In this document: positions 17,257 to 28,339 of the stretch, in pieces
Layout of the letters: each line of letters opens with the position of its first letter
Numbering within the stretch: position 1 is the first letter of the stretch
Source: Candidatus Zixiibacteriota bacterium
GTDB lineage: Bacteria; Zixibacteria; MSB-5A5; SM1-73
DNA length: 28,339 bases
NCBI GenBank assembly: GCA_043810415.1
Contig: JBDROD010000209.1
Span: 1-28,339 of the forward strand
Reading direction: 5' to 3'
The notes under the pieces: model-generated
Database searches by the model: none
Told to the model about the DNA's origin: nothing
What the model saw: only the letters and a program-made list of their open reading frames with translations
Made by a program: the position numbers and the translations under genes

Positions 17257-18132
17257 ATGGCAGCAGAGATCATTGACGGGAAGAAAATTTCTGCAGAGAT
17301 CAAAGAAGGATTAAAAGAAAAAATAAACCGTCTTAAAGAGAGAGGGAAAGTTCCAGGACTGGCTGCGGTTTTGGTAGGGGATAACCCGGCTTCGCAGGTT
17401 TATGTGAACATGAAGGTGAAAGCCTGCGAAGAAATAGGCATCCTTTCCGAAGTTTCACGTTACCCCAAAGAATTACCTGAATCCGAATTGTTGAAGAAGA
17501 TAATTGAATTGAATGAACAAAAACACATTCACGGAATTTTGGTTCAATTTCCCCTGCCGGCTCAGATCAGCGAAGAGAAGGTGATCTTGACCATCGATTC
17601 GAAAAAAGACGTAGACGGTTTTCATCCTTTTAACGTGGGGATGATGGTAGCAGGCAAACCGACTTTTCTGCCATGCACTCCTTTGGGCATTCAGGAACTT
17701 ATGGTCAGATCGGGGCATGATCCCTCGGGAAAGCACGTAGTGATCTTAGGCCGGGGGAGTCTGGTGGGCCGTCCGCTGGCGGTCATGCTTTTTCAAAAAG
17801 CAAATGGTGCCAATGCTACAGTATCCATCTGCCATACGGGCACGAGGAACTTACCTGAGATAACCCGACAGGCAGATATACTGATCGCAGCGATGGGGAA
17901 AGCTCGATTCGTCACCAAAGATATGGTCAAGCCCGGTGTGGTGGTGATCGACGTGGGGACCAACCGGATAGAAGATCCTACAACTAAGTCCGGATATAGA
18001 CTGGTGGGGGACGTCGACTTCGATACAGTCAGCCAAGTAGCCAGCGCCATCACCCCGGTTCCCGGAGGCGTGGGACCGATGACCATTGCCATGCTTCTGT
18101 CCAATACGGTTAGGTCATGTGAGATGCTGTAA
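17257..18132 (+). CDS. folD: Bifunctional methylenetetrahydrofolate dehydrogenase/cyclohydrolase
   Basis: LVGDNPASQVYVNMK, KDVDGFHP, FLPCTPLG, GRGSLVGRP, ITPVPGGVGPMTIAML. Confidence 0.99.
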   Translation: MAAEIIDGKKISAEIKEGLKEKINRLKERGKVPGLAAVLVGDNPASQVYVNMKVKACEEIGILSEVSRYPKELPESELLKKIIELNEQKHIHGILVQFPLPAQISEEKVILTIDSKKDVDGFHPFNVGMMVAGKPTFLPCTPLGIQELMVRSGHDPSGKHVVILGRGSLVGRPLAVMLFQKANGANATVSICHTGTRNLPEITRQADILIAAMGKARFVTKDMVKPGVVVIDVGTNRIEDPTTKSGYRLVGDVDFDTVSQVASAITPVPGGVGPMTIAMLLSNTVRSCEML

Positions 18133-18180
18133 ATAGAGCGGTCAACGGTGTGAGCCAAACGCTTCTTAGCTATAGATCGA

Positions 18181-18202
18181 ATGGTTCGACTTCGCTCACC
18201 AT
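18181..18202 (+). repeat. REP-like palindromic element ATGGTTCGACTTCGCTCACCAT
   Basis: ATGGT/ACCAT stem around TCGACTTCGCTC, recalled as a widespread TTCGACTTCGCTCA intergenic palindrome type. Degenerate inverted partner ATGGTGAG at 18237-18244. Confidence 0.55.
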
Positions 18203-18397
18203 CTTCGACGGATTAAACGGATGGAAAGGATAAAAAATGGTGAGATTGAGCTATCGGAGCCTAGGGTATTTGATAAATTCTAAGCACAGTGAAACGGTTT
18301 GTCGGTGCAAATTTAGGAAGAGCCAATCTATTATCAAGTTGTAGTTTGATTATCTAAAACCCCACCTTTCCTTTCCTCTGAAATATCCTAATACGAA

Positions 18398-18931
18398 GTG
18401 GTTAGATTCAAAATACTAGAGATGTCAACAAACAAGCATAAAGTAAAAGAAGGATACAAGATTGCCCAGTGTTGTTCTCCGCAACTGGTCGATGCCATCA
18501 CTGGATATTACAGCTATAATAATATCCTCATTGTCCACAAAACCACTTGTGACAGTTTGAAAAAAGCGGAAGCAAAGAGATTGGTTCCCCTTTTATGGAC
18601 AGAGATATTGGAGAAAGGTGAAGAGGAACCGGACAAAGATTACCACGATCTGGATGAGGTCGATTTCCGCATATTGCAGCATCATCAATCCATGGGAGTG
18701 GATTACTCCTGGATGGTGGCATCTGCGCTGGATATGGATCCGGAGCTGGTGTTCGAGCGGCATAAAAAACTAAAGGATCTAAAACTTCTAAAACGGGTGG
18801 AACCGGTGATGATCCAATATCGCAAAAACATAGTGGAACACAAATGGATCAAGCACCGGAACCACACCTATTATCAAATTACTTCCAAAGGTGAAAAGTA
18901 CTTGAATTTCTTCGTTTCCCATAACCGGTAG
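18398..18931 (+). CDS. Fusion of a RelA/SpoT-type Cys-rich zinc-finger segment and a DUF2250-like winged-helix domain
   Basis: IAQCCSPQLVDAITGYYSYNNILIVHKTTC resembles the RelA pattern A.CC.P..GD.I.G.......IH..DC. ILQHHQSMGVDY...LLKRV...KHRNHTYYQITSKGE resembles DUF2250. Alternative ATG at 18422. Confidence 0.7.
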   Translation: MVRFKILEMSTNKHKVKEGYKIAQCCSPQLVDAITGYYSYNNILIVHKTTCDSLKKAEAKRLVPLLWTEILEKGEEEPDKDYHDLDEVDFRILQHHQSMGVDYSWMVASALDMDPELVFERHKKLKDLKLLKRVEPVMIQYRKNIVEHKWIKHRNHTYYQITSKGEKYLNFFVSHNR

Positions 18932-19036
18932 TATCTTTTCAATTACTTCCCCTACTCATAAATAGCAGGAAGTGCTTTTGTAATCAGTGAAGCGGATGAA
19001 GTTTGCTTTCAACAAAAAATTCTTTCTGCGCTACAG

Positions 19037-19063
19037 TAAAGAAATCCAAGATTTTCCCGATTA
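19037..19063 (+). promoter_or_regulatory. Putative sigma28-type promoter upstream of the DUF4388 gene
   Basis: TAAA-N15-CCCGATTA (TAAAG -35, 6/8 match at -10). Confidence 0.55.
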
Positions 19064-19136
19064 TAAGTCTATGGGTGATAACGGATATTTCTATAAGTGC
19101 ATCCAGGTCATCAAACGATAAAATCGTGAGTCCACT

Positions 19137-20339
19137 TTGAGCGTAAGCATCAAAACAAAAGAGGTCGGGCTAACCGGAAATCTTAGCACGGTTTCCCTGT
19201 CGGATCTGCTTCAGCTGATCAGCGTATCCGGGAAGACAGGTATGCTGGTCATCTCCAGGGAAAGCCAAAAAAGGGAGATATACTTCAAAAAAGGGGACAT
19301 CATTTACGCCACCTCTATGGGAAGCGAAGATGAGCTTTTGGGAAATCTACTTTTGTCCCAAAGAAAGATCCTGAAGCCGGATTTGGAAAAGGCTTTAAGC
19401 CTGCAGAAACTGACCAATAAGAGGCTGGGGGACATCCTTTATGAGATGAGAACCTTAACCCGAGACGAGGTGATCGAATGTCTCCAGGTTCAGATCGAGG
19501 AAATCATTTACAGTCTATTCGGGTGGAACTCAGGCGAGTTCGTGTTCTATGACGGTAAACTGCCTCACTCCGAACAGATAACCACCCAGCTTGGTACCAT
19601 GAACGTGATCATGGAGGGGAGCAGACGAATCGACGAATGGACCCAGATCAAGGAGACCTTCCCTTCGGATAGTATAGAGCTGTGGGTGATCAGAAACCCC
19701 AAGATAAAGTCGACTTTGGTCAAAATAAGCGTTGACGAGCTGCAACTGCTCCCGTTAATCTCCGGGAACAGAACCATCTCCGAGCTGTTGTCGGTAAGCC
19801 CCTTAAGAGAGTTTCATACTTACAAAGCCCTGTATAATTTGTACAACTCAGGATGGGTAGAAAAGGGGGAGAAGAAAAAAGCCAAGATGCAGGAATTCGA
19901 CGGGGAGAAGCTGATCCATGACGTGCTGATCAAACTGTATTCCCAGTCTTATCAGACCATAGAGAGATTTGTCTCTCAAAAGCTGGGGGAGGGTGCCAAG
20001 ACGGTTCTGACCAGGTGTTTTGAGGTTCAAAAATCTTATAACCCCATCTTGGCCAAGCTGGAAAGCTCCGATAATTTTTTGGATTTTCGCCATCTGAGAA
20101 GCTCTATCGACAAGATGCCCCAGGCGATTCGATTTCATAAACTGACCAGCGCGCTCAACGATCTGCTCTACGAATTCATGAGAGAGATCAACCGGGATTT
20201 AGGCAAAAATGTCACCATGCAAGTGGTATCCCAGATAAAAAAGGATACGGCTCAGGTGGTGGCAGAAAACAGATGGGTGGCAAAGGAATATGAGTTGGAG
20301 GAAGAGATACTAAAAACTTTAAAACAGGGTCAAAGATGA
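19137..20339 (+). CDS. DUF4388 (PatA-N-like) domain protein with MshEN-like repeat
   Basis: LTGNLSTVSLSDLLQLISVSGKTGML.I..ESQKREIYFKKGDIIYA is the DUF4388 pattern. LLGNLLL...LEKAL.LQ...RLGDIL is MshEN-like. NVIMEGSRRIDEW. Confidence 0.85.
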   Translation: MSVSIKTKEVGLTGNLSTVSLSDLLQLISVSGKTGMLVISRESQKREIYFKKGDIIYATSMGSEDELLGNLLLSQRKILKPDLEKALSLQKLTNKRLGDILYEMRTLTRDEVIECLQVQIEEIIYSLFGWNSGEFVFYDGKLPHSEQITTQLGTMNVIMEGSRRIDEWTQIKETFPSDSIELWVIRNPKIKSTLVKISVDELQLLPLISGNRTISELLSVSPLREFHTYKALYNLYNSGWVEKGEKKKAKMQEFDGEKLIHDVLIKLYSQSYQTIERFVSQKLGEGAKTVLTRCFEVQKSYNPILAKLESSDNFLDFRHLRSSIDKMPQAIRFHKLTSALNDLLYEFMREINRDLGKNVTMQVVSQIKKDTAQVVAENRWVAKEYELEEEILKTLKQGQR

Positions 20340-20776
20340 TGATAAAAGAACACCACACTTGCATTTCCAAAAGAGTGAAAAGGATAATAACCGTCTACCT
20401 CTCTACAGGGCTGGTATTATGGGTTGGTCGTATGGCTTTCGCTTTGCCCGAAAGCGAAAATTATCAAGCGGAAATGGGATGGTTTTCATCCAAACCAGCA
20501 TGGTTCACCCTTCTGGATATCCTGCTTCTGATGGGCATTCTCACCTGCTTTTTCATATCGGTAAAGGTTAAATCATTCCTGAGGGATGGGGAGTTAGCAT
20601 CAGGCTGGACCCTCTTTTCCCTCTCCTTCGTTCTTCTCTTCATCGCCCAGCTCCTCAGTTTGTCGCTTAATATTAATCTTTTCAATATACCCTTAAGCCT
20701 AGTCTCCATAATCCGTCTTCTGTCTATCTTTACGTTGGCCTCAGGCATCTATTTTATGAAAAGGGTGTTGAGTTGA
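20336..20776 (+). CDS. Hypothetical membrane protein (signal-like N-terminus plus about 3 TM helices)
   Basis: ATGA overlap with the upstream stop. Hydrophobic segments WFTLLDILLLMGILTCFFISV, GWTLFSLSFVLLFIAQLLSL, LVSIIRLLSIFTLASGIYFM. Confidence 0.75.
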   Translation: MMIKEHHTCISKRVKRIITVYLSTGLVLWVGRMAFALPESENYQAEMGWFSSKPAWFTLLDILLLMGILTCFFISVKVKSFLRDGELASGWTLFSLSFVLLFIAQLLSLSLNINLFNIPLSLVSIIRLLSIFTLASGIYFMKRVLS

Positions 20777-20890
20777 GCGGCAATCATTCCGATTCTAAAA
20801 AATATTCCATCCACCTCCACTGGTGAAACAATCCCTTCAGCCTCCTTTAGCTTCAGAAGCCATTATATATGGCTTTTTTCGACATTCAAG

Positions 20891-20918
20891 TTAAGTATAA
20901 CGATTTGACTGTCGATAA
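20891..20918 (+). promoter_or_regulatory. Sigma28-type promoter upstream of the roadblock-Mgl operon
   Basis: TTAAGTAT-N12-GTCGATAA (TAAG-N15-GTCGATAA). Confidence 0.7.
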
Positions 20919-21091
20919 ACTTTATAGTCAGATTAGGGGATTTCATATAACCTTTCTGAAGGGGATTTTGTTACTAAAATGTTCTGTTACCAAAGGTAAC
21001 CGAATATACGTCAGAGAGGAATAGTGTTTTTTGAAACGGACTTATTCGGACCGGCAGATTTGAGCAGCATCAGCTAAAATCGAGGGAATCT

Positions 21092-21928
21092 ATGTGTCCA
21101 ACTATAGCCATAGAGCTAGACGAAAGAATCGAAAAGTGTGAAAGGATATTGTCGGAAAACCCCGAATCTCTGATATTTGCGGCTCTATCCGATGCCTATC
21201 GCAAGAAGGGGGACCTATCCAAAGCGTTTCATGTCTGTAGCCGGGGGCTTAAGATACATTCGGAGTATGGTCCCGGTCATCTGGTGATGGCAAAGATCAA
21301 TTTCGAAAGGGGAATGTACAGCGAAGCGGAAAAGGAGCTTTACTTAGCCATCAAGTCGGACGGAAAGACCCGGACATCTGAACTTCTTTTGGCTCATATC
21401 TTGTACAAAAAGAATCAGATTAAGGAAGCCAAGAATATACTGGAAGAACTCAAAGCGACCGATCCGGATAACCAAACGATAAACGAGCTTTTAAACGCCA
21501 TTCGGCAAGGCGGTGAGGCGGAAAAAAACTATTACGACACCATAGCGGTCGAGGAGCGGTGGAACATAGAGAAGATTTCGGATCTCAAAGAGGCGGTGGG
21601 TTATTTGAAATCGCTGCCGGGGATACTGGGGGTAATGGTGATCGGGGAGGAGGGATTGATCCGGGAAAGCAAGTTGAATCCCAAGTTCAAGAAAGAACTG
21701 CTGGGGGCTACGGTTATCGACATCACCCAAAGCGCGGATGAGGGATTAACCGGTATAGACTTAGGAAAGTTGGAGCGGATCGCGATAGAGGGACAAAATC
21801 TTGAACTATGGATAACCCGCTTTGATCACCAGACCCTGGTACTGTGCTGCTCTGCCGATGCCAATCTGGGTGCTTTGAAGGTAAGGGTATGGGAGATACT
21901 GGAACAGCTATCTCTGAACATTGGATGA
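21092..21928 (+). CDS. TPR-repeat protein with C-terminal roadblock/LC7 domain
   Basis: FAALSDAYRKKGDL..A...C..GL..H..Y..GHLVMAKI TPR units. C-terminal LKSLPGILGVMVIGEEGLI...ANLGALKV roadblock pattern. Confidence 0.82.
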   Translation: MCPTIAIELDERIEKCERILSENPESLIFAALSDAYRKKGDLSKAFHVCSRGLKIHSEYGPGHLVMAKINFERGMYSEAEKELYLAIKSDGKTRTSELLLAHILYKKNQIKEAKNILEELKATDPDNQTINELLNAIRQGGEAEKNYYDTIAVEERWNIEKISDLKEAVGYLKSLPGILGVMVIGEEGLIRESKLNPKFKKELLGATVIDITQSADEGLTGIDLGKLERIAIEGQNLELWITRFDHQTLVLCCSADANLGALKVRVWEILEQLSLNIG

Positions 21929-21940
21929 TAAGGGGGAGAG

Positions 21941-22870
21941 GTGAATTCAGGATTCAAAGGAGAACTAAAAGGAATACTTTTGGTCTCTTTTTTTATCATG
22001 GTGGTCCCGCTGATTTTCTTCCCCTGGGATTTTGGGCTGAGATGGGATTTTTCCCTCTTATTACATATGCTGATTGAAATATTCTGGTATGTTTTAATAC
22101 TAACCGCCATCCTCTATAGACCATCTATTAAACAGGTTTTGACCGGTACAGTTTTGACTTTCACTTATCGGGTGATTTTGGGGGCTGGATTTGCGGTTCT
22201 TCTGAGGATCATGCTGTCAGAATCATGGTCCGTTGCAATCATGTCGGGTATGTATGGGTATACCCCGGCTTTTCTGCTTCAGGTTTTAATGTCACCCTTT
22301 GTAATCAAGTCATTTGGTGGAGGTTCTATGAAAAAGAAGTTGAAAACCGAACAGGAGCTTTATCCGCAAGAGAGGAAAATACAGAATGCCTATTCTCCTT
22401 ACCCCCCGGAGAGGATTTTCAATGAAAAATCGACGGGGAGAGGATTCTTAACCGGAGAAAAGGATTTGAAATCATGCCGGGTGGACAATCTGGAAAGCAT
22501 TCTGCATTACCTCAAGGAGTATTCTGGAGTGAAAGCCGCCATTCTGGTGGATGAGGAGGGCTTGGTGATAGCTTATGATGCTTCTTCCGATCAGGACGTG
22601 GAGAAGGTGGCTTCTTATGCCCGATGTTTGAAGGAGGCTAATGACCAGGTATTGGGGAAGATAGGGGAACAAACCTCAGAGCGGATCAACATTCACACCC
22701 CCTCTTTGTGGATCTGCTTAAACCGGATAGGCCGATTTCTGCTGGTGGTGGCGGCGGATCATAACACGGACGAATTGCTCTCGGTAAGGATTATGCAGTC
22801 ACTGGCTACGATAAAGAGATATATCCAAGAAAGATACCAGGAAAATATACTAAAAGAAGTGGAGGGGTGA
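21941..22870 (+). CDS. Membrane protein (about 4 TM) with C-terminal roadblock/LC7 domain
   Basis: Hydrophobic N-terminal 120 aa, then LKEYSGVKAAILVDEEGLVIA roadblock signature. GTG start. Confidence 0.82.
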   Translation: MNSGFKGELKGILLVSFFIMVVPLIFFPWDFGLRWDFSLLLHMLIEIFWYVLILTAILYRPSIKQVLTGTVLTFTYRVILGAGFAVLLRIMLSESWSVAIMSGMYGYTPAFLLQVLMSPFVIKSFGGGSMKKKLKTEQELYPQERKIQNAYSPYPPERIFNEKSTGRGFLTGEKDLKSCRVDNLESILHYLKEYSGVKAAILVDEEGLVIAYDASSDQDVEKVASYARCLKEANDQVLGKIGEQTSERINIHTPSLWICLNRIGRFLLVVAADHNTDELLSVRIMQSLATIKRYIQERYQENILKEVEG

Positions 22871-22871
22871 T

Positions 22872-23213
22872 ATGTTCCAGATATTGGAGGAGTTGAACAA
22901 GACCGTCGGAATAAATGGCAGCATGATCGTGGGAAAAGACGGGATCGTTATCGCTGCCGATTTGAATGCTAATCTCCAGGACGAGGCGGTGGGGGCTTTA
23001 GCCGCTTCCATAGTGGACACGGTGAAAAAGTCGATGGAGCGTCTTTCCAATGAGAATTTAAGACAGATAACCGTGGAGGCGAGCAAAGGGAAGCTGTTTT
23101 TGACGGATGTGGGGATAGGCATTCTGGCGGTCACCACCGATCCGCAGGTGAACGTGGGGTTGGTCCGCCTGGAGATCAAGAATGCGGCAGAAAAAATAAA
23201 GATTGCCCAGTAG
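22872..23213 (+). CDS. Stand-alone roadblock/LC7 (MglB/MglC-like) protein
   Basis: LNKTVGINGSMIVGKDGIVIA, EAVGALAASI, NVGLVRLEIK. Confidence 0.88.
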   Translation: MFQILEELNKTVGINGSMIVGKDGIVIAADLNANLQDEAVGALAASIVDTVKKSMERLSNENLRQITVEASKGKLFLTDVGIGILAVTTDPQVNVGLVRLEIKNAAEKIKIAQ

Positions 23214-23255
23214 CCCGCTTAATAATGACCGTTGGCCGTTTGGGGGAGGGAGAAG

Positions 23256-24227
23256 ATGGCATCCATAAATTATGCCTTCAAGGAGATATCGTGTAAGATC
23301 GTTTATTACGGTCCGGGGCTTTCCGGCAAGACCACCAACCTTCAATATGTGCATCAGAAGATCCCCCCTCAGACCAGAGGGGATCTGATCTCTTTGGCTA
23401 CCGATCAGGACAGGACCCTTTACTTCGATTTCCTTCCGGTGAACATCGGGAAGGTGCACGGCTTTTCCACGAAGTTTCAGCTCTATACCGTACCGGGACA
23501 GGTTTACTACAATGCCACGCGGAAGCTGGTTCTGCGGGGAGTGGATGGCTTGGTCTTCGTTGCAGATTCCCAGAAATCCAAAATGGATGAAAACCTGGAA
23601 AGCTATCAGAATTTACTGGATAATCTGGCGGAGTACGGGTATAACCTGGATAAGCTTCCCCTGGTGCTACAATATAACAAAAGGGACCTAACCCCCATAA
23701 TCTCGCTGGAAGAGCTGCAGAAGGCTTTGAATCCTCACCAGTTCCCTTATTATGAGGCAGTAGCCATCCGGGGAGTGGGTGTTTTCGATACTTTGAAATG
23801 CATCAGCAAGATGGTTTTAGACCAGGCCAAGCGCAAGCAGCTGTTTCCGCAAAGAGAGGCGGAGGAAAAGGATTCGGTACTTTCTCCGGTAGCCCTTTCC
23901 CAGACACCCTCAGGCGAGTCAATGGTCGATATGATCGGTTCAACCGCTCCGGCAGAAGGGATGCCGGATACGACAGCAACAGCTGTAGCGGAGGAGGAAC
24001 CGGTATCGGCTGAGGAAAAGATTTTCCCCGAACCAGTAACTATTCCAGAAGAATCAAAACCGGAAGTTGAGCTCAAGATAAAAGAAATGACCGAGGAAAA
24101 TCAAGAGAAGATGGAAATGCCGATCGCTGCATCGAGTCCGACCATAATAAGCTGGTCCGCAGGTAAAAAGACCCGGTCAAAGGGTTTCTTTTTATGGCGA
24201 TTTCTCGGCAGAATATTCAACCGGTAA
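23256..24227 (+). CDS. mglA: MglA-family small GTPase with about 120-aa C-terminal extension
   Basis: INY..KEI.CKIVYYGPGLSGKTTNLQY, DRTLYFDFLP (catalytic Arg), LYTVPGQVYY (catalytic Gln), GVDGLVFVADS, QYNKRD. ATG 23256 after GGAGGG. Confidence 0.95.
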   Translation: MASINYAFKEISCKIVYYGPGLSGKTTNLQYVHQKIPPQTRGDLISLATDQDRTLYFDFLPVNIGKVHGFSTKFQLYTVPGQVYYNATRKLVLRGVDGLVFVADSQKSKMDENLESYQNLLDNLAEYGYNLDKLPLVLQYNKRDLTPIISLEELQKALNPHQFPYYEAVAIRGVGVFDTLKCISKMVLDQAKRKQLFPQREAEEKDSVLSPVALSQTPSGESMVDMIGSTAPAEGMPDTTATAVAEEEPVSAEEKIFPEPVTIPEESKPEVELKIKEMTEENQEKMEMPIAASSPTIISWSAGKKTRSKGFFLWRFLGRIFNR

Positions 24228-24247
24228 AATCAAGCGGAGGTGTGAAA

Positions 24248-24754
24248 TTGAGACAGGACGATTTAGTGATTTATGAAGAACAGATAGAGGATATAGAAAG
24301 AACGCTGAGGCGGTTGATCAAGGATGCACAGGCCAAATGCGTTCTGCTGGTGGACAAGGATGGTCATTTGATCACCCGACAGGGTTTCACCCAGTCCTTG
24401 GACACCACTGCCTTGGCCGCCCTTTTGGCGGGGAGCTTTGCCTCCACCCAGGAGATCGCCCGGCTGGTGGGAGAGCCGGAGTTTTCGGTGCTCTTTCATC
24501 AAGGGAAAAAGGATCACATTCACATCACCTTGGTAGGGGAACGATCCATCTTGGCGGTGATCTTTGATGACCGCACCACCATCGGTATGGTCCGGCTGTA
24601 TGCTAAAGAGATTGCGGAGGATTTAAACCAGATCCTCTCCTCGGAAAAGCAAGAGGAAAGCCAATCGAAAAATGAGCCGGGAACGGAAGTGGATACGGAA
24701 TTTTCCGCTACGGTGGAGACCAGACTGGACGACATCTTTTCCGATAAATACTAA
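24248..24754 (+). CDS. mglB: MglB GTPase-activating protein (roadblock)
   Basis: LVIYEE, AKCVLLVDKDGHLI, DTTALAALLAG, F...FHQG.KD, LAVIFDDRTTIGMVRL and acidic tail LDDIFS parallel Myxococcus MglB. TTG 24248 is 7 nt after GGAGG. Confidence 0.93.
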   Translation: MRQDDLVIYEEQIEDIERTLRRLIKDAQAKCVLLVDKDGHLITRQGFTQSLDTTALAALLAGSFASTQEIARLVGEPEFSVLFHQGKKDHIHITLVGERSILAVIFDDRTTIGMVRLYAKEIAEDLNQILSSEKQEESQSKNEPGTEVDTEFSATVETRLDDIFSDKY

Positions 24755-24840
24755 ACCGATAGCGGCAAAAGGGTTTGGACTATTCTAAATCGGCTAGCGG
24801 ATTACCATTAAAAGGACGGAGTATATTCGGGTAAAAACTT

Positions 24841-26536
24841 ATGTCACGTGAATTGGGAGACATGCTGGTCAAGGCAGGCAAGATATCGGAAGAACAGCTT
24901 GGTCGGGCTTTGGACCTGCAGAAGAGAAGCGATGAAAAGTTGGGAAACATTCTGATCAGGATGGGGATCATCGCCAATGAAGACGAGCTGTCCGAGTTCA
25001 TCGGGCGTCAGCTGAACATCGGAGCCTTGAGGCTTACCGACATTGAGTTGAATCCGGAGGTGGTGAAGATGATCCCGATGGACATCGCCCGGAAGTTCAA
25101 CGTCATCGCCATAGGTAAGCTGGGCAAAACCCTGATCGTAGCCATTTCCGATCCCAACAACATCTACGTGCTGGATGCGGTGAAGTTCATTACCGGATGC
25201 GCGGTACAACCGGTGATCAGTCCGGAGAAGGCCATCCAGAAAGCCATAGATAACTATTATCGTGACGCTGCCGGGATCACCGAGATACTCAAGGGGATGA
25301 AGGAAGGGGATCTGGAGGTGATTGGTGAAAGTGAGGAGGCGCTTACTGAACAAGATTTAAGGTCTCAGGTTCAGGACAAACCCTTGGTCAAGCTGGTAGA
25401 TTCCATCATTGCCGATGCCATACGCCGAGGATGCTCGGATATTCACATAGAAACCTACGAGAAAAAGATCCGGGTCAGATACAGGTTGGATGGGGATCTG
25501 CAGGAGATGTCGCCCCTGCCTTTCAAGTATCGTGCCGCCATCGTTTCCCGGGTGAAGATCATGGCGGATCTGGACATCTCGGAGAGAAGGCTGCCCCAGG
25601 ACGGCAGAATAAAGGTCAAATTCGGAGACCGGGCTGTGGATCTGCGGGTTTCGGTGCTTCCCACTATTTTTGGGGAGAAGGTGGTAATGCGGATATTGGA
25701 TCCCAGGAGCGTCAATGTGGATCTGACGAAACTGGGATTTGCGGAGGCCTCTTTGGCTGAATTCGATAAAGCCATCCATCTGCCTTACGGCATGATCCTG
25801 GTAACCGGTCCCACCGGAAGCGGAAAAACCACCACCTTATATTCTGCCTTAAAGCAGATCAATACGACGGATATCAATATCATGACCGCAGAGGATCCGG
25901 TGGAGTTCAATTTTGAAGGGATAAATCAGGTGGCGGTGAAAAGCGAGATCGGTTTGACCTTCGCCTCGGCCTTGAGATCGTTCTTAAGGCAGGACCCGGA
26001 CGTGGTCATGGTGGGGGGAGATAAGAGACGGTGAGACCGCGGAGATCGCAGTGAGAGCGGCCTTAACCGGACACCTGGTCTTTTCCACCCTGCATACCAA
26101 CGATGCCCCCAGCACCATAGACCGATTGATCGATATGGGCATCCCCAGCTATCTGGTGGCTTCCTGCGTCAGACTGGTTATGGCCCAGAGGATGGTGCGC
26201 AAGGTCTGTACCAATTGCCGGGAGGAGATAAAACTCCCCTCCGAGACTTTACAGATACTGGGGCTGACAGAAGACGAGGTCAAAGACACCAAGATATACG
26301 CCGCCAAAGGATGTAACGAATGTAATAGTACAGGTTATTCAGGAAGGACCGGTATTTTCGAGGTAATGCCCATGAGTCAAGCTATTGAAAGGATGATCTT
26401 AGCTAAAGCCTCCAATATGGACATACGACAGCAAGCCATCGCAGAGGGGATGCTTACCCTGCGGACCGCCGCACTGGGAAAATTGAAAAATGGAGTCACC
26501 ACGGTTGCAGAAGTTATGGCGGTAACGGCATTATAA
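24841..26536 (+). pseudogene. pilB: Type IV pilus assembly ATPase PilB, interrupted by a +1 frameshift (extra G in run 26013-26018)
   Basis: ORF 24841-26034 has the MshEN N-terminus, ERRLPQDGR and Walker A GPTGSGKT. Removing one G restores [23 protein letters not shown] into ORF 26051-26536 (STLHTN, CxxC/CxxC, GRTGIFEV), giving 564 aa. Confidence 0.9.
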
Positions 26537-26580
26537 ACGCAAGATGATAGATCAATTTAAATAAATCTGTCTGGACCGAT

Positions 26581-26607
26581 TTAAGTATCAATCGGCGTAG
26601 TCGATAA
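26581..26607 (+). promoter_or_regulatory. Sigma28-type promoter upstream of pilT
   Basis: TTAAGTAT-N11-GTCGATAA, 56 nt before the pilT ATG. Confidence 0.72.
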
Positions 26608-26663
26608 TATAAGAAGAAACACGTTTTCTTATGATTTAAATATAGAATAAACTGGAGCAAAAG

Positions 26664-27758
26664 ATGGTTACCTTGAGAGAACTTTTGGAGTTAATGGTGA
26701 AGAAGAATGCTTCCGATTTGCATCTGACTACCGGATCACCACCCCAATTGAGGGTGGACGGGAAATTAATCAAGACCGAATGCGATATACTGAACCCAGA
26801 GGATACCAAGAAGCTGGCTTACAGCATAATGAACGAAAAGCAAAAACAGAAGTTTGAGGAGAAAAGTGAGCTGGATTTGTCCTTCGGCATTGAACATCTC
26901 AGCCGCTTCAGATGCAATGTTTTTATGCAGAGGGGAAATGTGGCGGTAGCTTTAAGGCAGATTCCTTTCCACATCCCCAGCTTCGAAGAGTTGGGGGTCC
27001 CTAAAGTTGTAGCGGATCAGGCCAATTTACCCAGGGGTTTGGTGCTGGTAACTGGACCCACTGGTAGTGGAAAATCTACCACCTTAGCAGCATTGATCAA
27101 CAAGATCAATCAGGAAAGGCACTGTCATATTCTGACGGTCGAGGATCCCATCGAATATCTTCACCGGCACAATTCCTCCTTGATCAACCAGCGGGAGGTA
27201 TATGCCGACACCTCCTCTTTCGGCAGTGCTTTGAAATATGCCTTAAGAGAGGATCCGGACGTGGTGATGATAGGAGAGATGAGAGACTTAGAGACCATGG
27301 AATCCACCTTGAATATCTCCGAGACCGGGCATCTGGCTTTTGCCACACTGCACACCAACTCCTGTGCCGAATCGATCAACCGGATAATCGACGTTTTCCC
27401 CAACAACCAGCAGGAACAGGTACGGGTGACCGTTTCCTTCGTCCTTCAGGCGGTGATCAGTCAACAACTGATTCCCAAGATAGGTGGGGGACGGGTTTTG
27501 GCTTTGGAGGTCATGATCTGCACCCCGGCAATAAGGGCTCTTATCCGGGACGATAAAATACACCAAATCTACAGCTTGATGCAGGCCGGACAGAAATACG
27601 GGATGAGGACCATGAATCAATCTTTGGCAGAACTTTATCTTAAACATAAAATCACTTTGGGCGATACTCTGGGCAGAAGCTCCAATATTCAGGAACTTAA
27701 TGAGCTTTTGGCCAGGAAAGCGGAGATAGGACAACGGAGTCATGCAATGAAGGTATAG
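26664..27758 (+). CDS. pilT: Type IV pilus retraction ATPase PilT
   Basis: ASDLHL, GPTGSGKSTTLA, TVEDPIEY, ALREDPDVVMIGEMRD, ETGHL..ATLHTNS, AIRALIR (AIRNLIRE-like motif), GM.TMNQSL. Confidence 0.97.
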   Translation: MVTLRELLELMVKKNASDLHLTTGSPPQLRVDGKLIKTECDILNPEDTKKLAYSIMNEKQKQKFEEKSELDLSFGIEHLSRFRCNVFMQRGNVAVALRQIPFHIPSFEELGVPKVVADQANLPRGLVLVTGPTGSGKSTTLAALINKINQERHCHILTVEDPIEYLHRHNSSLINQREVYADTSSFGSALKYALREDPDVVMIGEMRDLETMESTLNISETGHLAFATLHTNSCAESINRIIDVFPNNQQEQVRVTVSFVLQAVISQQLIPKIGGGRVLALEVMICTPAIRALIRDDKIHQIYSLMQAGQKYGMRTMNQSLAELYLKHKITLGDTLGRSSNIQELNELLARKAEIGQRSHAMKV

Positions 27759-27895
27759 GGATTAGTCTGAGTAAACCGGAAGTATCAGGTTAAACACGAT
27801 GATTCTTTACCGGTGATATGAATTTCATTAACCGTCTTTGATCCGGTTCTACCAGGTTCGGAGTTGTTGTTTTCAGTAAAAGGAAGGAGGTTGCC

Positions 27896-28339
27896 TTGCC
27901 AGTTTTCACATACAAGGGAAAAACGCTGACCGGTACTCAGGTAGCAGGGGAGTTAAAAGTAAAAGATCGTGCGGAACTGGAAAGGATCTTGAGGAGCAAA
28001 AAGATATTGGTTTCCCAGGTGGCCACCAAGCCCTCTCAGATAAGCCTAAGAATTGGCACCGGAATCAAGAAAGTGCACATCTCCCGCTTCACCCGGCAAT
28101 TTGCCACCATGATCACCGCAGGGCTGCCCATGGTTCAGTGTCTGGAGATATTAGCCCAGCAGATGGAATCAGCCAACTTGAGAAAGATAGTCGGGGAGAT
28201 CAAAGAGAGCGTGCAAGCAGGAACCACCTTAGCTGAAGCTTTGTCTAAGCACAAGAAGGTGTTTGACGACCTGTTCGTAAACATGGTGGATGCAGGTGAA
28301 ATAGGGGGAGCTTTGGACGTCATATTGTTGAGGCTAGCC
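27896..28339 (+). CDS. pilC: Type IV pilus inner-membrane platform protein PilC (5' partial, runs off the window)
   Basis: TTG after AGGAGG gives MPVFTYKGK...FTRQFATMITAGLPMVQCLEIL...GTTLAEALSKH.KVF..LFVNMV.AGE.GG.L. Not in the ORF track because there is no stop in the window. Confidence 0.95.
   Translation, partial: MPVFTYKGKTLTGTQVAGELKVKDRAELERILRSKKILVSQVATKPSQISLRIGTGIKKVHISRFTRQFATMITAGLPMVQCLEILAQQMESANLRKIVGEIKESVQAGTTLAEALSKHKKVFDDLFVNMVDAGEIGGALDVILLRLA

Follow-up and report, generated by a model that had tools for sequence, protein, structure and literature searches.

A conserved block of MglA, MglB and three accessory Roadblock proteins beside the type IV pilus motor genes of Zixibacteria

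A packed Roadblock-mglA block upstream of pilBTC

Contig JBDROD010000209.1 of a Candidatus Zixiibacteriota bacterium (28,339 nucleotides, referred to here as the window) carries a packed, same-strand (+) block of five genes at 21092-24754, which encode a Roadblock protein with tetratricopeptide repeats (TPR-Roadblock), a Roadblock protein with a four-helix membrane domain (4TM-Roadblock, hereafter TM-Roadblock), a stand-alone Roadblock, a group-1 MglA GTPase and MglB, and which is followed by pilB, pilT and pilC of the type IV pilus. These five genes had been predicted earlier from the letters of the sequence alone (the original prediction); we found them at the same coordinates on the + strand, and the physical link to the pilus genes proposed at that time is real, with pilB, pilT and pilC directly downstream. 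The PATAN gene and small membrane ORF further upstream, the 130-aa tail of MglA and the frameshift in pilB were not part of that prediction. The spacing between the five genes is 12, 1, 42 and -34 nt, mglB starting directly after mglA or overlapping it by 34 nt. We read this block, at a probability of roughly 0.55, as a membrane-resident MglA/MglB switch in which the three accessory Roadblocks would form a scaffold, similar to MglC of Myxococcus xanthus or to the Ragulator complex, that couples the switch to the pilus motor. The features of the locus are as follows.

19137..20339, + strand: PATAN (DUF4388) protein, 400 amino acids (aa); PF14332, with an MshEN-type cyclic di-GMP (c-di-GMP) motif inserted at residues 68-119
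20336..20776, + strand: small membrane protein, 146 aa, recognised from hydropathy and homologue sequences
21092..21928, + strand: TPR-Roadblock, 278 aa; about four TPRs (3-138), a short linker and a Roadblock fold (165-277)
21941..22870, + strand: membrane Roadblock (TM-Roadblock), 309 aa; four-helix membrane domain (3-137), disordered linker (138-180) and Roadblock fold (184-298)
22872..23213, + strand: stand-alone Roadblock, 113 aa; Robl_LC7
23256..24227, + strand: MglA, 323 aa; GTPase core (1-193), acidic, proline-rich, low-complexity tail, and a basic and amphipathic end (24180-24224)
24194..24754, + strand: MglB, 186 aa from the ATG at 24194; Robl_LC7 and similarity to characterised MglB
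24841..26536, + strand: pilB, type IV pilus extension ATPase, in two frames (24841-26034 and 26051-26536), with an N-terminal MshEN motif
26664..27758, + strand: pilT, retraction ATPase; TIGR01420, 488 bits
27896..28339, + strand: 5' part of pilC, platform protein, which runs out of the window; T2SSF and PilC models

The source genome is a metagenome-assembled genome (MAG) of 447 contigs, with all genes of the module on one contig. In this 87%-complete genome the four Roadblock domains of the block are the only ones and its MglA is the only MglA-family GTPase, and pilM and secretin genes are present elsewhere. No NCBIfam model names the TM-Roadblock or the stand-alone Roadblock, and Rfam gave no match within 18000-28339. 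A DUF2250 protein (18398-18931) is encoded immediately upstream of the PATAN gene in the window and in a relative of the same genus; in other families it lies outside the conserved block. Contigs from one groundwater metatranscriptome library cover parts of the TPR- and TM-Roadblock genes with 0-22 differences. Some run across from Roadblock to mglA, from mglA to mglB and from mglB to pilB, with 4-22 differences, which weakly hints at expression of the module, although DNA carry-over is possible and a single transcript is not proven by these contigs.

MglA, its Roadblock partners and the PATAN protein

Residues 1-193 of MglA align without gaps to M. xanthus MglA (6h17, E = 1.3e-79), and Thermus thermophilus MglA is matched at E = 1.2e-70. 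The intrinsic arginine finger Arg53, Thr78 of G3 and the catalytic Gln82 lie at the same residue numbers, in the motifs DRTLYFDF and YTVPGQ, and models of Arf, Ras and Gtr1 are matched as well. By this alignment, the protein is an orthodox MglA of group 1, equipped with an arginine finger of its own and the catalytic glutamine. An alternative start in the list of open reading frames (ORFs) is the TTG at 23232. Group-1 MglA proteins are small, single-domain proteins with fewer than 240 aa in 449 of 488 members (Wuichet and Sogaard-Andersen 2014), whereas the window MglA has 323 aa, and those of 76 Zixibacteria loci have 300-511 aa, owing to a C-terminal tail.

In the window this tail comprises 130 residues after the core, is acidic, proline-rich and of low complexity, and ends in KGFFLWRFLGRIFNR. 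A basic run and an amphipathic stretch stand at the very C-terminus in all 76 loci, the linker before them being unconserved and variable, and the end in many lineages is KKRGFFKRLFG(I/V)K. This end is much like the membrane-targeting C-terminus of Escherichia coli MinD, in which a terminal basic run is likewise followed by an amphipathic stretch; in Zixibacteria, however, it would sit on a GTPase of another family, after a disordered tether of 100-300 aa, and membrane binding is a prediction. In the window MglA, the hydrophobic moment peaks elsewhere in the protein than in its last 14 residues.

The TPR-Roadblock matches TPR_19 (E = 3.4e-10) and scores 19.9 bits against Robl_LC7, under the PF03259 gathering score of 23 bits, whereas the TM-Roadblock, the stand-alone Roadblock and MglB exceed that score with 34.3, 50.0 and 55.1 bits, respectively. 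We judged its weak Roadblock call to be real because its homologues pass, most of the 120 listed having PF03259 in their precomputed annotation, and because both the predicted fold and the structural matches agree with it. The AlphaFold2 (AF2) model, built with 63 sequences (mean predicted local distance difference test score, pLDDT, 91.7), contains eight TPR-type helices at residues 3-138, a short low-confidence linker and, at residues 165-277, the full alpha-beta-beta-alpha-beta-beta-beta-alpha Roadblock fold, which Foldseek matched to Asgard Roadblocks, LAMTOR2 and MglB at a target-normalised template modelling (TM) score of about 0.8.

The Robl_LC7 match of the TM-Roadblock lies at residues 188-271, and hydropathy places three to four hydrophobic segments within its first 125 residues, as in its relatives. 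Its AF2 model (pLDDT 80) consists of four long N-terminal helices, a disordered segment (138-180) and a Roadblock fold predicted with confidence (184-298); pLDDT exceeds 90 across the Roadblock domains of both the TPR- and the TM-Roadblock models. Foldseek again matched this fold to LAMTOR2 and MglB, the predicted Roadblock domains overall giving TM scores of 0.76-0.89, and the matches listed for the model were all Roadblock-domain structures, with no recognised relative of the membrane domain among them. The domain architectures of the original prediction are thus borne out by Pfam matches, AF2 models and Foldseek, and the fusions of TPR and membrane domains to Roadblock domains are real. Because the last membrane helix is followed by a stretch rich in lysine, the Roadblock domain should face the cytoplasm. 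In an alignment of 54 TM-Roadblocks, the membrane part has Glu46 (helix 2) and Arg77 (helix 3) without exception and Tyr50 almost without exception (22076-22171 of the window), and among four counterparts from outside Zixibacteria, Glu46 and Tyr50 are present in all four and Arg77 in three. The conservation of this buried acidic/basic pair across phyla suggests a functional site in the membrane domain, such as a partner contact or a site of ion or proton sensing, and this domain may be more than an anchor.

The stand-alone Roadblock (Robl_LC7, 50 bits) has 30 invariant columns among 14 sequences. MglB matches M. xanthus MglB (6hjm) at E = 6.5e-36, the similarity including the C-terminal extension, and T. 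thermophilus MglB at E = 1.3e-18; as far as sequence can tell, it is the orthologue of the M. xanthus GTPase-activating protein (GAP). It scores 96 bits against the NCBIfam MglB model NF052242, below the 200-bit equivalog cut-off, and its true start possibly lies 14-24 codons past the ATG at 24194, its relatives having 160-170 aa. Over 80 Zixibacteria loci, the median identity to the window proteins is 70% for MglB, 67% for MglA, 65% for the stand-alone Roadblock, 38% for the TPR-Roadblock and 32% for the TM-Roadblock. The stand-alone Roadblock is therefore as constrained as the MglA switch itself.

A maximum-likelihood tree of 56 Roadblock domains, combined with approximately unbiased (AU) tests for monophyly, separates these proteins further. 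All MglB, those of other phyla included, form one clade with support of 100/100, and 15 of 16 stand-alone Roadblocks form another (85/92), in which twelve, seven of them from Zixibacteria, are nested at 95/84. Each of the two clades spans 4-5 lineages, which argues for non-redundant roles, and in this tree the stand-alone Roadblock is an old, separate orthologous group that has been co-inherited with MglA and MglB. The possibility that recent duplication of MglB gave rise to the extra Roadblocks was rejected on the same fully supported MglB clade. The TM-linked Roadblock domains fall into two strongly supported clades, one of Zixibacteria and one of the others, and the TPR-linked ones are scattered on long branches; the AU tests did not reject a single clade for either the TM-linked (p = 0.36) or the TPR-linked domains (p = 0.29).

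When the profile of the stand-alone Roadblock was compared with the PDB, the matches included Asgard Roadblocks (5e-14), CvnB5 (2.5e-5) and MglB (1e-4), so that in sequence it stands closer to the Asgard proteins and CvnB5 than to MglB; no chain named MglC was matched at E up to 10, the presence of an MglC chain in that set being unconfirmed, and no support was obtained for equating the stand-alone Roadblock with MglC. The three accessory Roadblocks all lie within three genes of mglA and thus do not share the orphan location of MglC. Among metagenomic proteins, P0141, P0147 and P0149 represent long proteins with two Roadblocks and one TPR protein with two Roadblocks, possibly fused Roadblock pairs; such natural fusions fit, without proving, a pairing between different Roadblocks.

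Two further genes precede the block. The PATAN protein matches PF14332 at E = 1.9e-34 (118.8 bits against a gathering score of 25) and is encoded upstream in 67 of the 80 Zixibacteria loci, the remaining loci being cut by contig ends. An MshEN-type c-di-GMP motif (NF053729, cut-off 38 bits) was detected in its residues 68-119 (19338-19493; 43.8 bits) and in residues 5-57 of PilB (24853-25011; 58.3 bits), and the PATAN of the Sumerlaeota-like modules described below carries one as well. In the PATAN protein, the motif occupies the site described for the alpha-helical insertion of the family. In Synechocystis, the type IV pilus motor has PATAN response regulators among its interaction partners (bioRxiv 10.1101/2021.06.11.447907), and PATAN is tied to PilB and pilus control in cyanobacteria also; unlike those regulators, the protein described here has no receiver domain and has an MshEN-type motif inside PATAN.

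The small membrane protein has a signal-peptide-like N-terminus, three hydrophobic segments and a conserved GEL-x-x-GW loop, without a match in Pfam or NCBIfam. Its start overlaps the PATAN stop (ATGA), so that the two genes are apparently translationally coupled; 315 nt separate it from the TPR-Roadblock gene, and tblastn detected it in 30 of the 80 loci. Together, three independent signs, namely the polytopic Roadblock, the MinD-like end of MglA and this co-located small membrane ORF, would therefore place the system at the inner membrane. The idea of a membrane-tethered complex, put forward in the original prediction, thus gains independent support, from the membrane-domain residues conserved across phyla and from the putative targeting end present in 76 of 76 MglA tails.

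Conservation, loss and related modules

The order PATAN, (small ORF), TPR-Roadblock, TM-Roadblock, Roadblock, MglA, MglB, PilB, PilT, PilC was found in 14 of 14 genomes across the families of the phylum and, contig ends aside, in 80 further Zixibacteria loci (94 loci in all). In a scan of genome contigs with the stand-alone Roadblock profile, the best 80 of 241 matches all belonged to Zixibacteria, some mislabelled as Ignavibacteria. Such identity of order excludes a chance neighbourhood, and pilBTC is adjacent in every Zixibacteria locus that reaches that far. An artefact of binning or annotation might be suspected from the fragmentation of the MAG and from the frameshift in pilB, where the run at 26013-26018 has six G and the frame needs five. 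However, the same order occurs on closed or megabase-scale Zixibacteria chromosomes, and the genes lie on one contig; an origin by chance or artefact is refuted by these data, and its probability is practically nil. The two parts of pilB share one frame in 70 of 70 relatives, and the base at 26013 is absent from Logan contigs of two other public runs, one of these being a 48-kb contig of a close relative. The frameshift is therefore probably an assembly error or a mutation private to this population, and not a feature of the system.

The TPR-Roadblock gene is present in single copy in 149 of the 151 Zixibacteria genomes sampled. In two genomes that lack it, G034 and G088 (each 96% complete), no MglA and no Roadblock domain was found, and in G034 no PATAN domain was found anywhere in the genome. 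G034 retains comEC-pilB-pilT-pilC followed by a PAS histidine kinase gene (C30:50000-69500), with comEC directly before pilB, and its pilB, pilT and pilC are orthologous to those of the window (70, 69 and 66% identity). G034 represents a naturally occurring deletion that removed the entire module and spared the motor. The module therefore behaves as a unit, and this loss would fit one that is functionally accessory to the pilus motor and not a part of it. In G088 no orthologous pilB was found, the best match being 40% identical.

Retention as a unit also bears on how the Roadblocks would work together. The extra Roadblocks could be separate homodimers, each of which binds MglA directly and sends it to a different place or under a different condition, with no joint complex; all four have an MglB-like fold, and Roadblock proteins commonly homodimerise, as in the Asgard RB and MglB structures. 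However, both the joint retention of the four genes as single copies in 149 of 151 genomes and the separate clades of the stand-alone Roadblock and MglB argue for distinct, interlocking roles, and the paralogue MglC has lost MglA binding (PMC4719450). We consider independent homodimers unlikely, and a joint scaffold is the reading that we develop below.

Relatives of the module were found in other phyla by a HMMER search with the stand-alone Roadblock profile against 1.84 billion representatives, which gave 323 matches below 1e-10, many of them full-length (111-122 aa). The phylum labels of the contigs from outside Zixibacteria rest on few NCBI protein names, and the Sumerlaeota label rests on one partial membrane-protein homologue (43% identity) named Candidatus Sumerlaeia. 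Four contigs, two Sumerlaeota-like and two unplaced (L111, L112, L113 and L115), share the five-gene core and its order with the window, comprising a TPR protein, a membrane protein of 300-310 aa with a Roadblock-like C-terminus, a Roadblock, an MglA of 386-406 aa and MglB, followed by PATAN and a response regulator. The response regulator has a C-terminal membrane helix, and the MglA has an extension of 190-210 aa that is possibly a folded domain.

On contig L108, whose Roadblock protein is named Armatimonadota, genes for a TPR-Roadblock, membrane proteins of 1107 and 244 aa, a Roadblock, a short MglA, MglB and a short PATAN protein stand directly before pilMNOPQ; the C-terminus of the 1107-aa protein is faintly Roadblock-like. 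A second contig labelled Armatimonadota (L107) starts inside the large membrane protein and continues with the genes of L108 from the Roadblock on. Planctomycetota contigs encode a PATAN-TPR-propeller protein, a TPR protein and a Roadblock, and one of them goes on with a 337-aa MglA and MglB. On a Gemmatimonadota chromosome (L117), two Roadblocks and two PATAN-TPR proteins lie within a che cluster (CheA, CheW, CheR, CheB, CheD, CheC), which also holds a 201-aa ORF that may be a divergent GTPase. The survey of synteny that had been proposed with the original prediction thus yielded one order in the 94 Zixibacteria loci and related modules in other phyla. The position of mglA before mglB, as first pointed out there, holds in the window and in every related module found in other phyla, whereas the gene order in Myxococcus is mglBA.

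These relatives raise the question of output. The module might regulate the membrane or polarity in general and act chiefly on something other than pilus polarity, such as DNA uptake through ComEC and the pilus, adhesion or another envelope process; its place beside pilBTC would then be peculiar to the lineage. This would accord with the four contigs of other lineages in which the five-gene core, PATAN and the response regulator lie away from pilus genes, with the related Gemmatimonadota Roadblocks in a chemosensory cluster, and with comEC directly before pilB in G034. It is harder to reconcile with the unbroken pilBTC adjacency in Zixibacteria and with the Armatimonadota contigs, which place the module next to pilMNOPQ, and all studied MglA proteins act on motility machines, pili included (PMC7519303, PMC3983030). 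An output other than the pilus is unlikely in our view, and we continue with the module as a switch coupled to the pilus motor.

A putative membrane scaffold for the MglA switch

In M. xanthus, stacked Roadblock dimers of RomR, MglC and MglB regulate MglA, an arrangement that its authors liken to Ragulator-Rag (PMC10329633). MglC, of the MglB_orphan1 subfamily, is the product of an orphan gene, has lost MglA binding and displays conserved FDI and KRR surface patches (PMC4719450), and the TPR protein SgmX links MglA-GTP to pilus formation and extension (PMC7519303, PMC7668184). The module described here shares with that of M. xanthus the MglA family and the MglB GAP family (E-values as given above). 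Both systems have an extra Roadblock, MglC stacking on MglB in M. xanthus, where a TPR protein ties MglA to pili. They differ in that three accessory Roadblocks lie beside mglA in Zixibacteria, whereas MglC is an orphan (PMC4719450), and in that TPR and membrane domains are fused to Roadblocks, MglA has a tether with a MinD-like end, and the whole set abuts pilBTC. Of the contrast with Myxococcus drawn in the original prediction, the fused anchors and the operon form stand, and these are the novelty; layered Roadblocks are not a new principle, because M. xanthus has the RomR/MglC/MglB stack (PMC10329633).

The TPR-Roadblock, with about four TPRs, looks unlike SgmX, which is a larger protein with many TPRs and is not known to have a Roadblock domain. 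In a survey of small GTPases from 2014, which predates the Zixibacteria genomes, the neighbourhoods of group-1 mglA were variable, with occasional PATAN genes and at most two coupled MglB (PMC4316618). We searched the literature for an already characterised Mgl operon type that this cluster would match and found none; nor was the cluster found in work on Zixibacteria with MglA, roadblock or pili, or on PATAN with roadblock, most subscription journals lying outside the search.

Two other bacterial systems invite comparison. The MglA and MglB of T. thermophilus (PMC3199381) are likewise a group-1 pair, here the minimal one, from a piliated bacterium outside the myxobacteria, and they match at the E-values reported above; two components were crystallised, and accessory Roadblocks, a tail or a membrane protein are not described in that work. 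The Streptomyces conservons (CvnA-D) and the group-3 MglA with two MglB (PMC4316618) are also conserved operons of an MglA-family GTPase with one or two Roadblocks, and CvnB5 is one of the closer matches that the stand-alone Roadblock has in the PDB. However, their GTPases belong to other MglA groups, which lack an arginine finger of their own; these operons pair the GTPase with a histidine kinase and a DUF742 protein, and they have no TPR protein, membrane Roadblock, PATAN protein or pilus genes.

In Ragulator-Rag, layers of Roadblock dimers form a membrane-anchored platform for GTPases, and the predicted Roadblocks of the module fit LAMTOR2 at the TM scores given above. The sequence identity is 15-20%, the Rag GTPases carry Roadblock domains of their own, and stacking in Zixibacteria is proposed by analogy only. 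The anchor of Ragulator is the lipidated LAMTOR1 and not a transmembrane domain. Ragulator has been proposed as an exchange factor for the Rag GTPases, and the accessory Roadblocks could, in the same way, be a membrane-anchored guanine nucleotide exchange factor (GEF) or activator of MglA, with soluble MglB switching it off. The Roadblock/longin platform is commonly a GEF fold (PMC3747258), the predicted folds match LAMTOR2 as well as MglB, and no GEF of the RomR/RomX type was noticed in the cluster, although RomR, RomX, RomY and FrzS were not searched for. Sequence and fold cannot tell a GEF from a scaffold, however, and MglC, the only additional Roadblock to have been characterised in an MglA system, acts neither as a GAP nor as a GEF (PMC10329633), so that exchange activity seems unlikely to us.

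We therefore return to a scaffold that couples the MglA/MglB switch to the pilus motor, and propose that it could work as follows. The MinD-like amphipathic helix at the C-terminus of MglA would keep the protein at the inner membrane, with the GTPase core on a long, flexible tether. Through their Roadblock domains, the three accessory proteins would form dimers that stack on one another and build a platform anchored in the membrane, as MglC does between RomR and MglB in Myxococcus and Ragulator does for the Rag GTPases; this platform would position MglB (the off state) and/or capture MglA-GTP (the on state) at the pilus base. In this platform the membrane Roadblock may replace a polar landmark, and the small Roadblock may be the connecting layer. 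The TPR arm would dock PilB, the pilus machine or a similar partner, a task that falls to SgmX in Myxococcus, and c-di-GMP could act on the system through the PATAN protein and PilB, both with MshEN-type motifs. The switch would set the place and time of pilus extension or retraction.

Several observations weigh against this proposal, which concerns uncultured organisms. The TPR- and TM-Roadblocks evolve fast, and their Roadblock domains were not resolved as single clades. Pilus genes were not found near the five-gene core in the four Sumerlaeota-like and unplaced contigs, so that the tie to pilBTC may be specific to Zixibacteria, and the MinD-like end was not found on the MglA tails of lineages outside this phylum. 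Promoter and terminator scans of 18900-28339 gave no more sites than shuffled sequence; at this chance level they say nothing on the limits of the operon, the structure of which is not established from them.

A broader and more tentative suggestion, which we regard as possible but doubtful, is that bacteria possess a Ragulator-like device in which the TPR-Roadblock and the small Roadblock stack with a polytopic Roadblock into a membrane-anchored platform, so as to recruit and time a self-tethered MglA at the pilus base. Its core, together with MglA, MglB and PATAN, would be an old module of Zixibacteria, Sumerlaeota-like bacteria, Armatimonadota and Planctomycetota, and the Glu/Tyr/Arg residues of the membrane domain would make it a sensor or coupling site and not just a passive anchor. 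If this were true, layered membrane Roadblock scaffolds for small GTPases would be a prokaryotic and not a eukaryotic invention.

MglA/MglB is a model for a Ras-like polarity switch, and nearly all knowledge of it comes from one organism in which its partners are scattered genome-wide and could only be discovered singly. In Zixibacteria the partners stand in one block, comprising a putatively tethered GTPase, its GAP, three Roadblocks fitted with adaptors and a likely c-di-GMP sensor, beside the presumed target motor. This compact, expressible set of about seven proteins would allow us to study the control of a small GTPase by stacked Roadblock dimers at a membrane, a question that the eukaryotic Ragulator-Rag system and the origin of such scaffolds also pose. 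The module further shows that MglA and type IV pili are widely linked outside Myxococcota.

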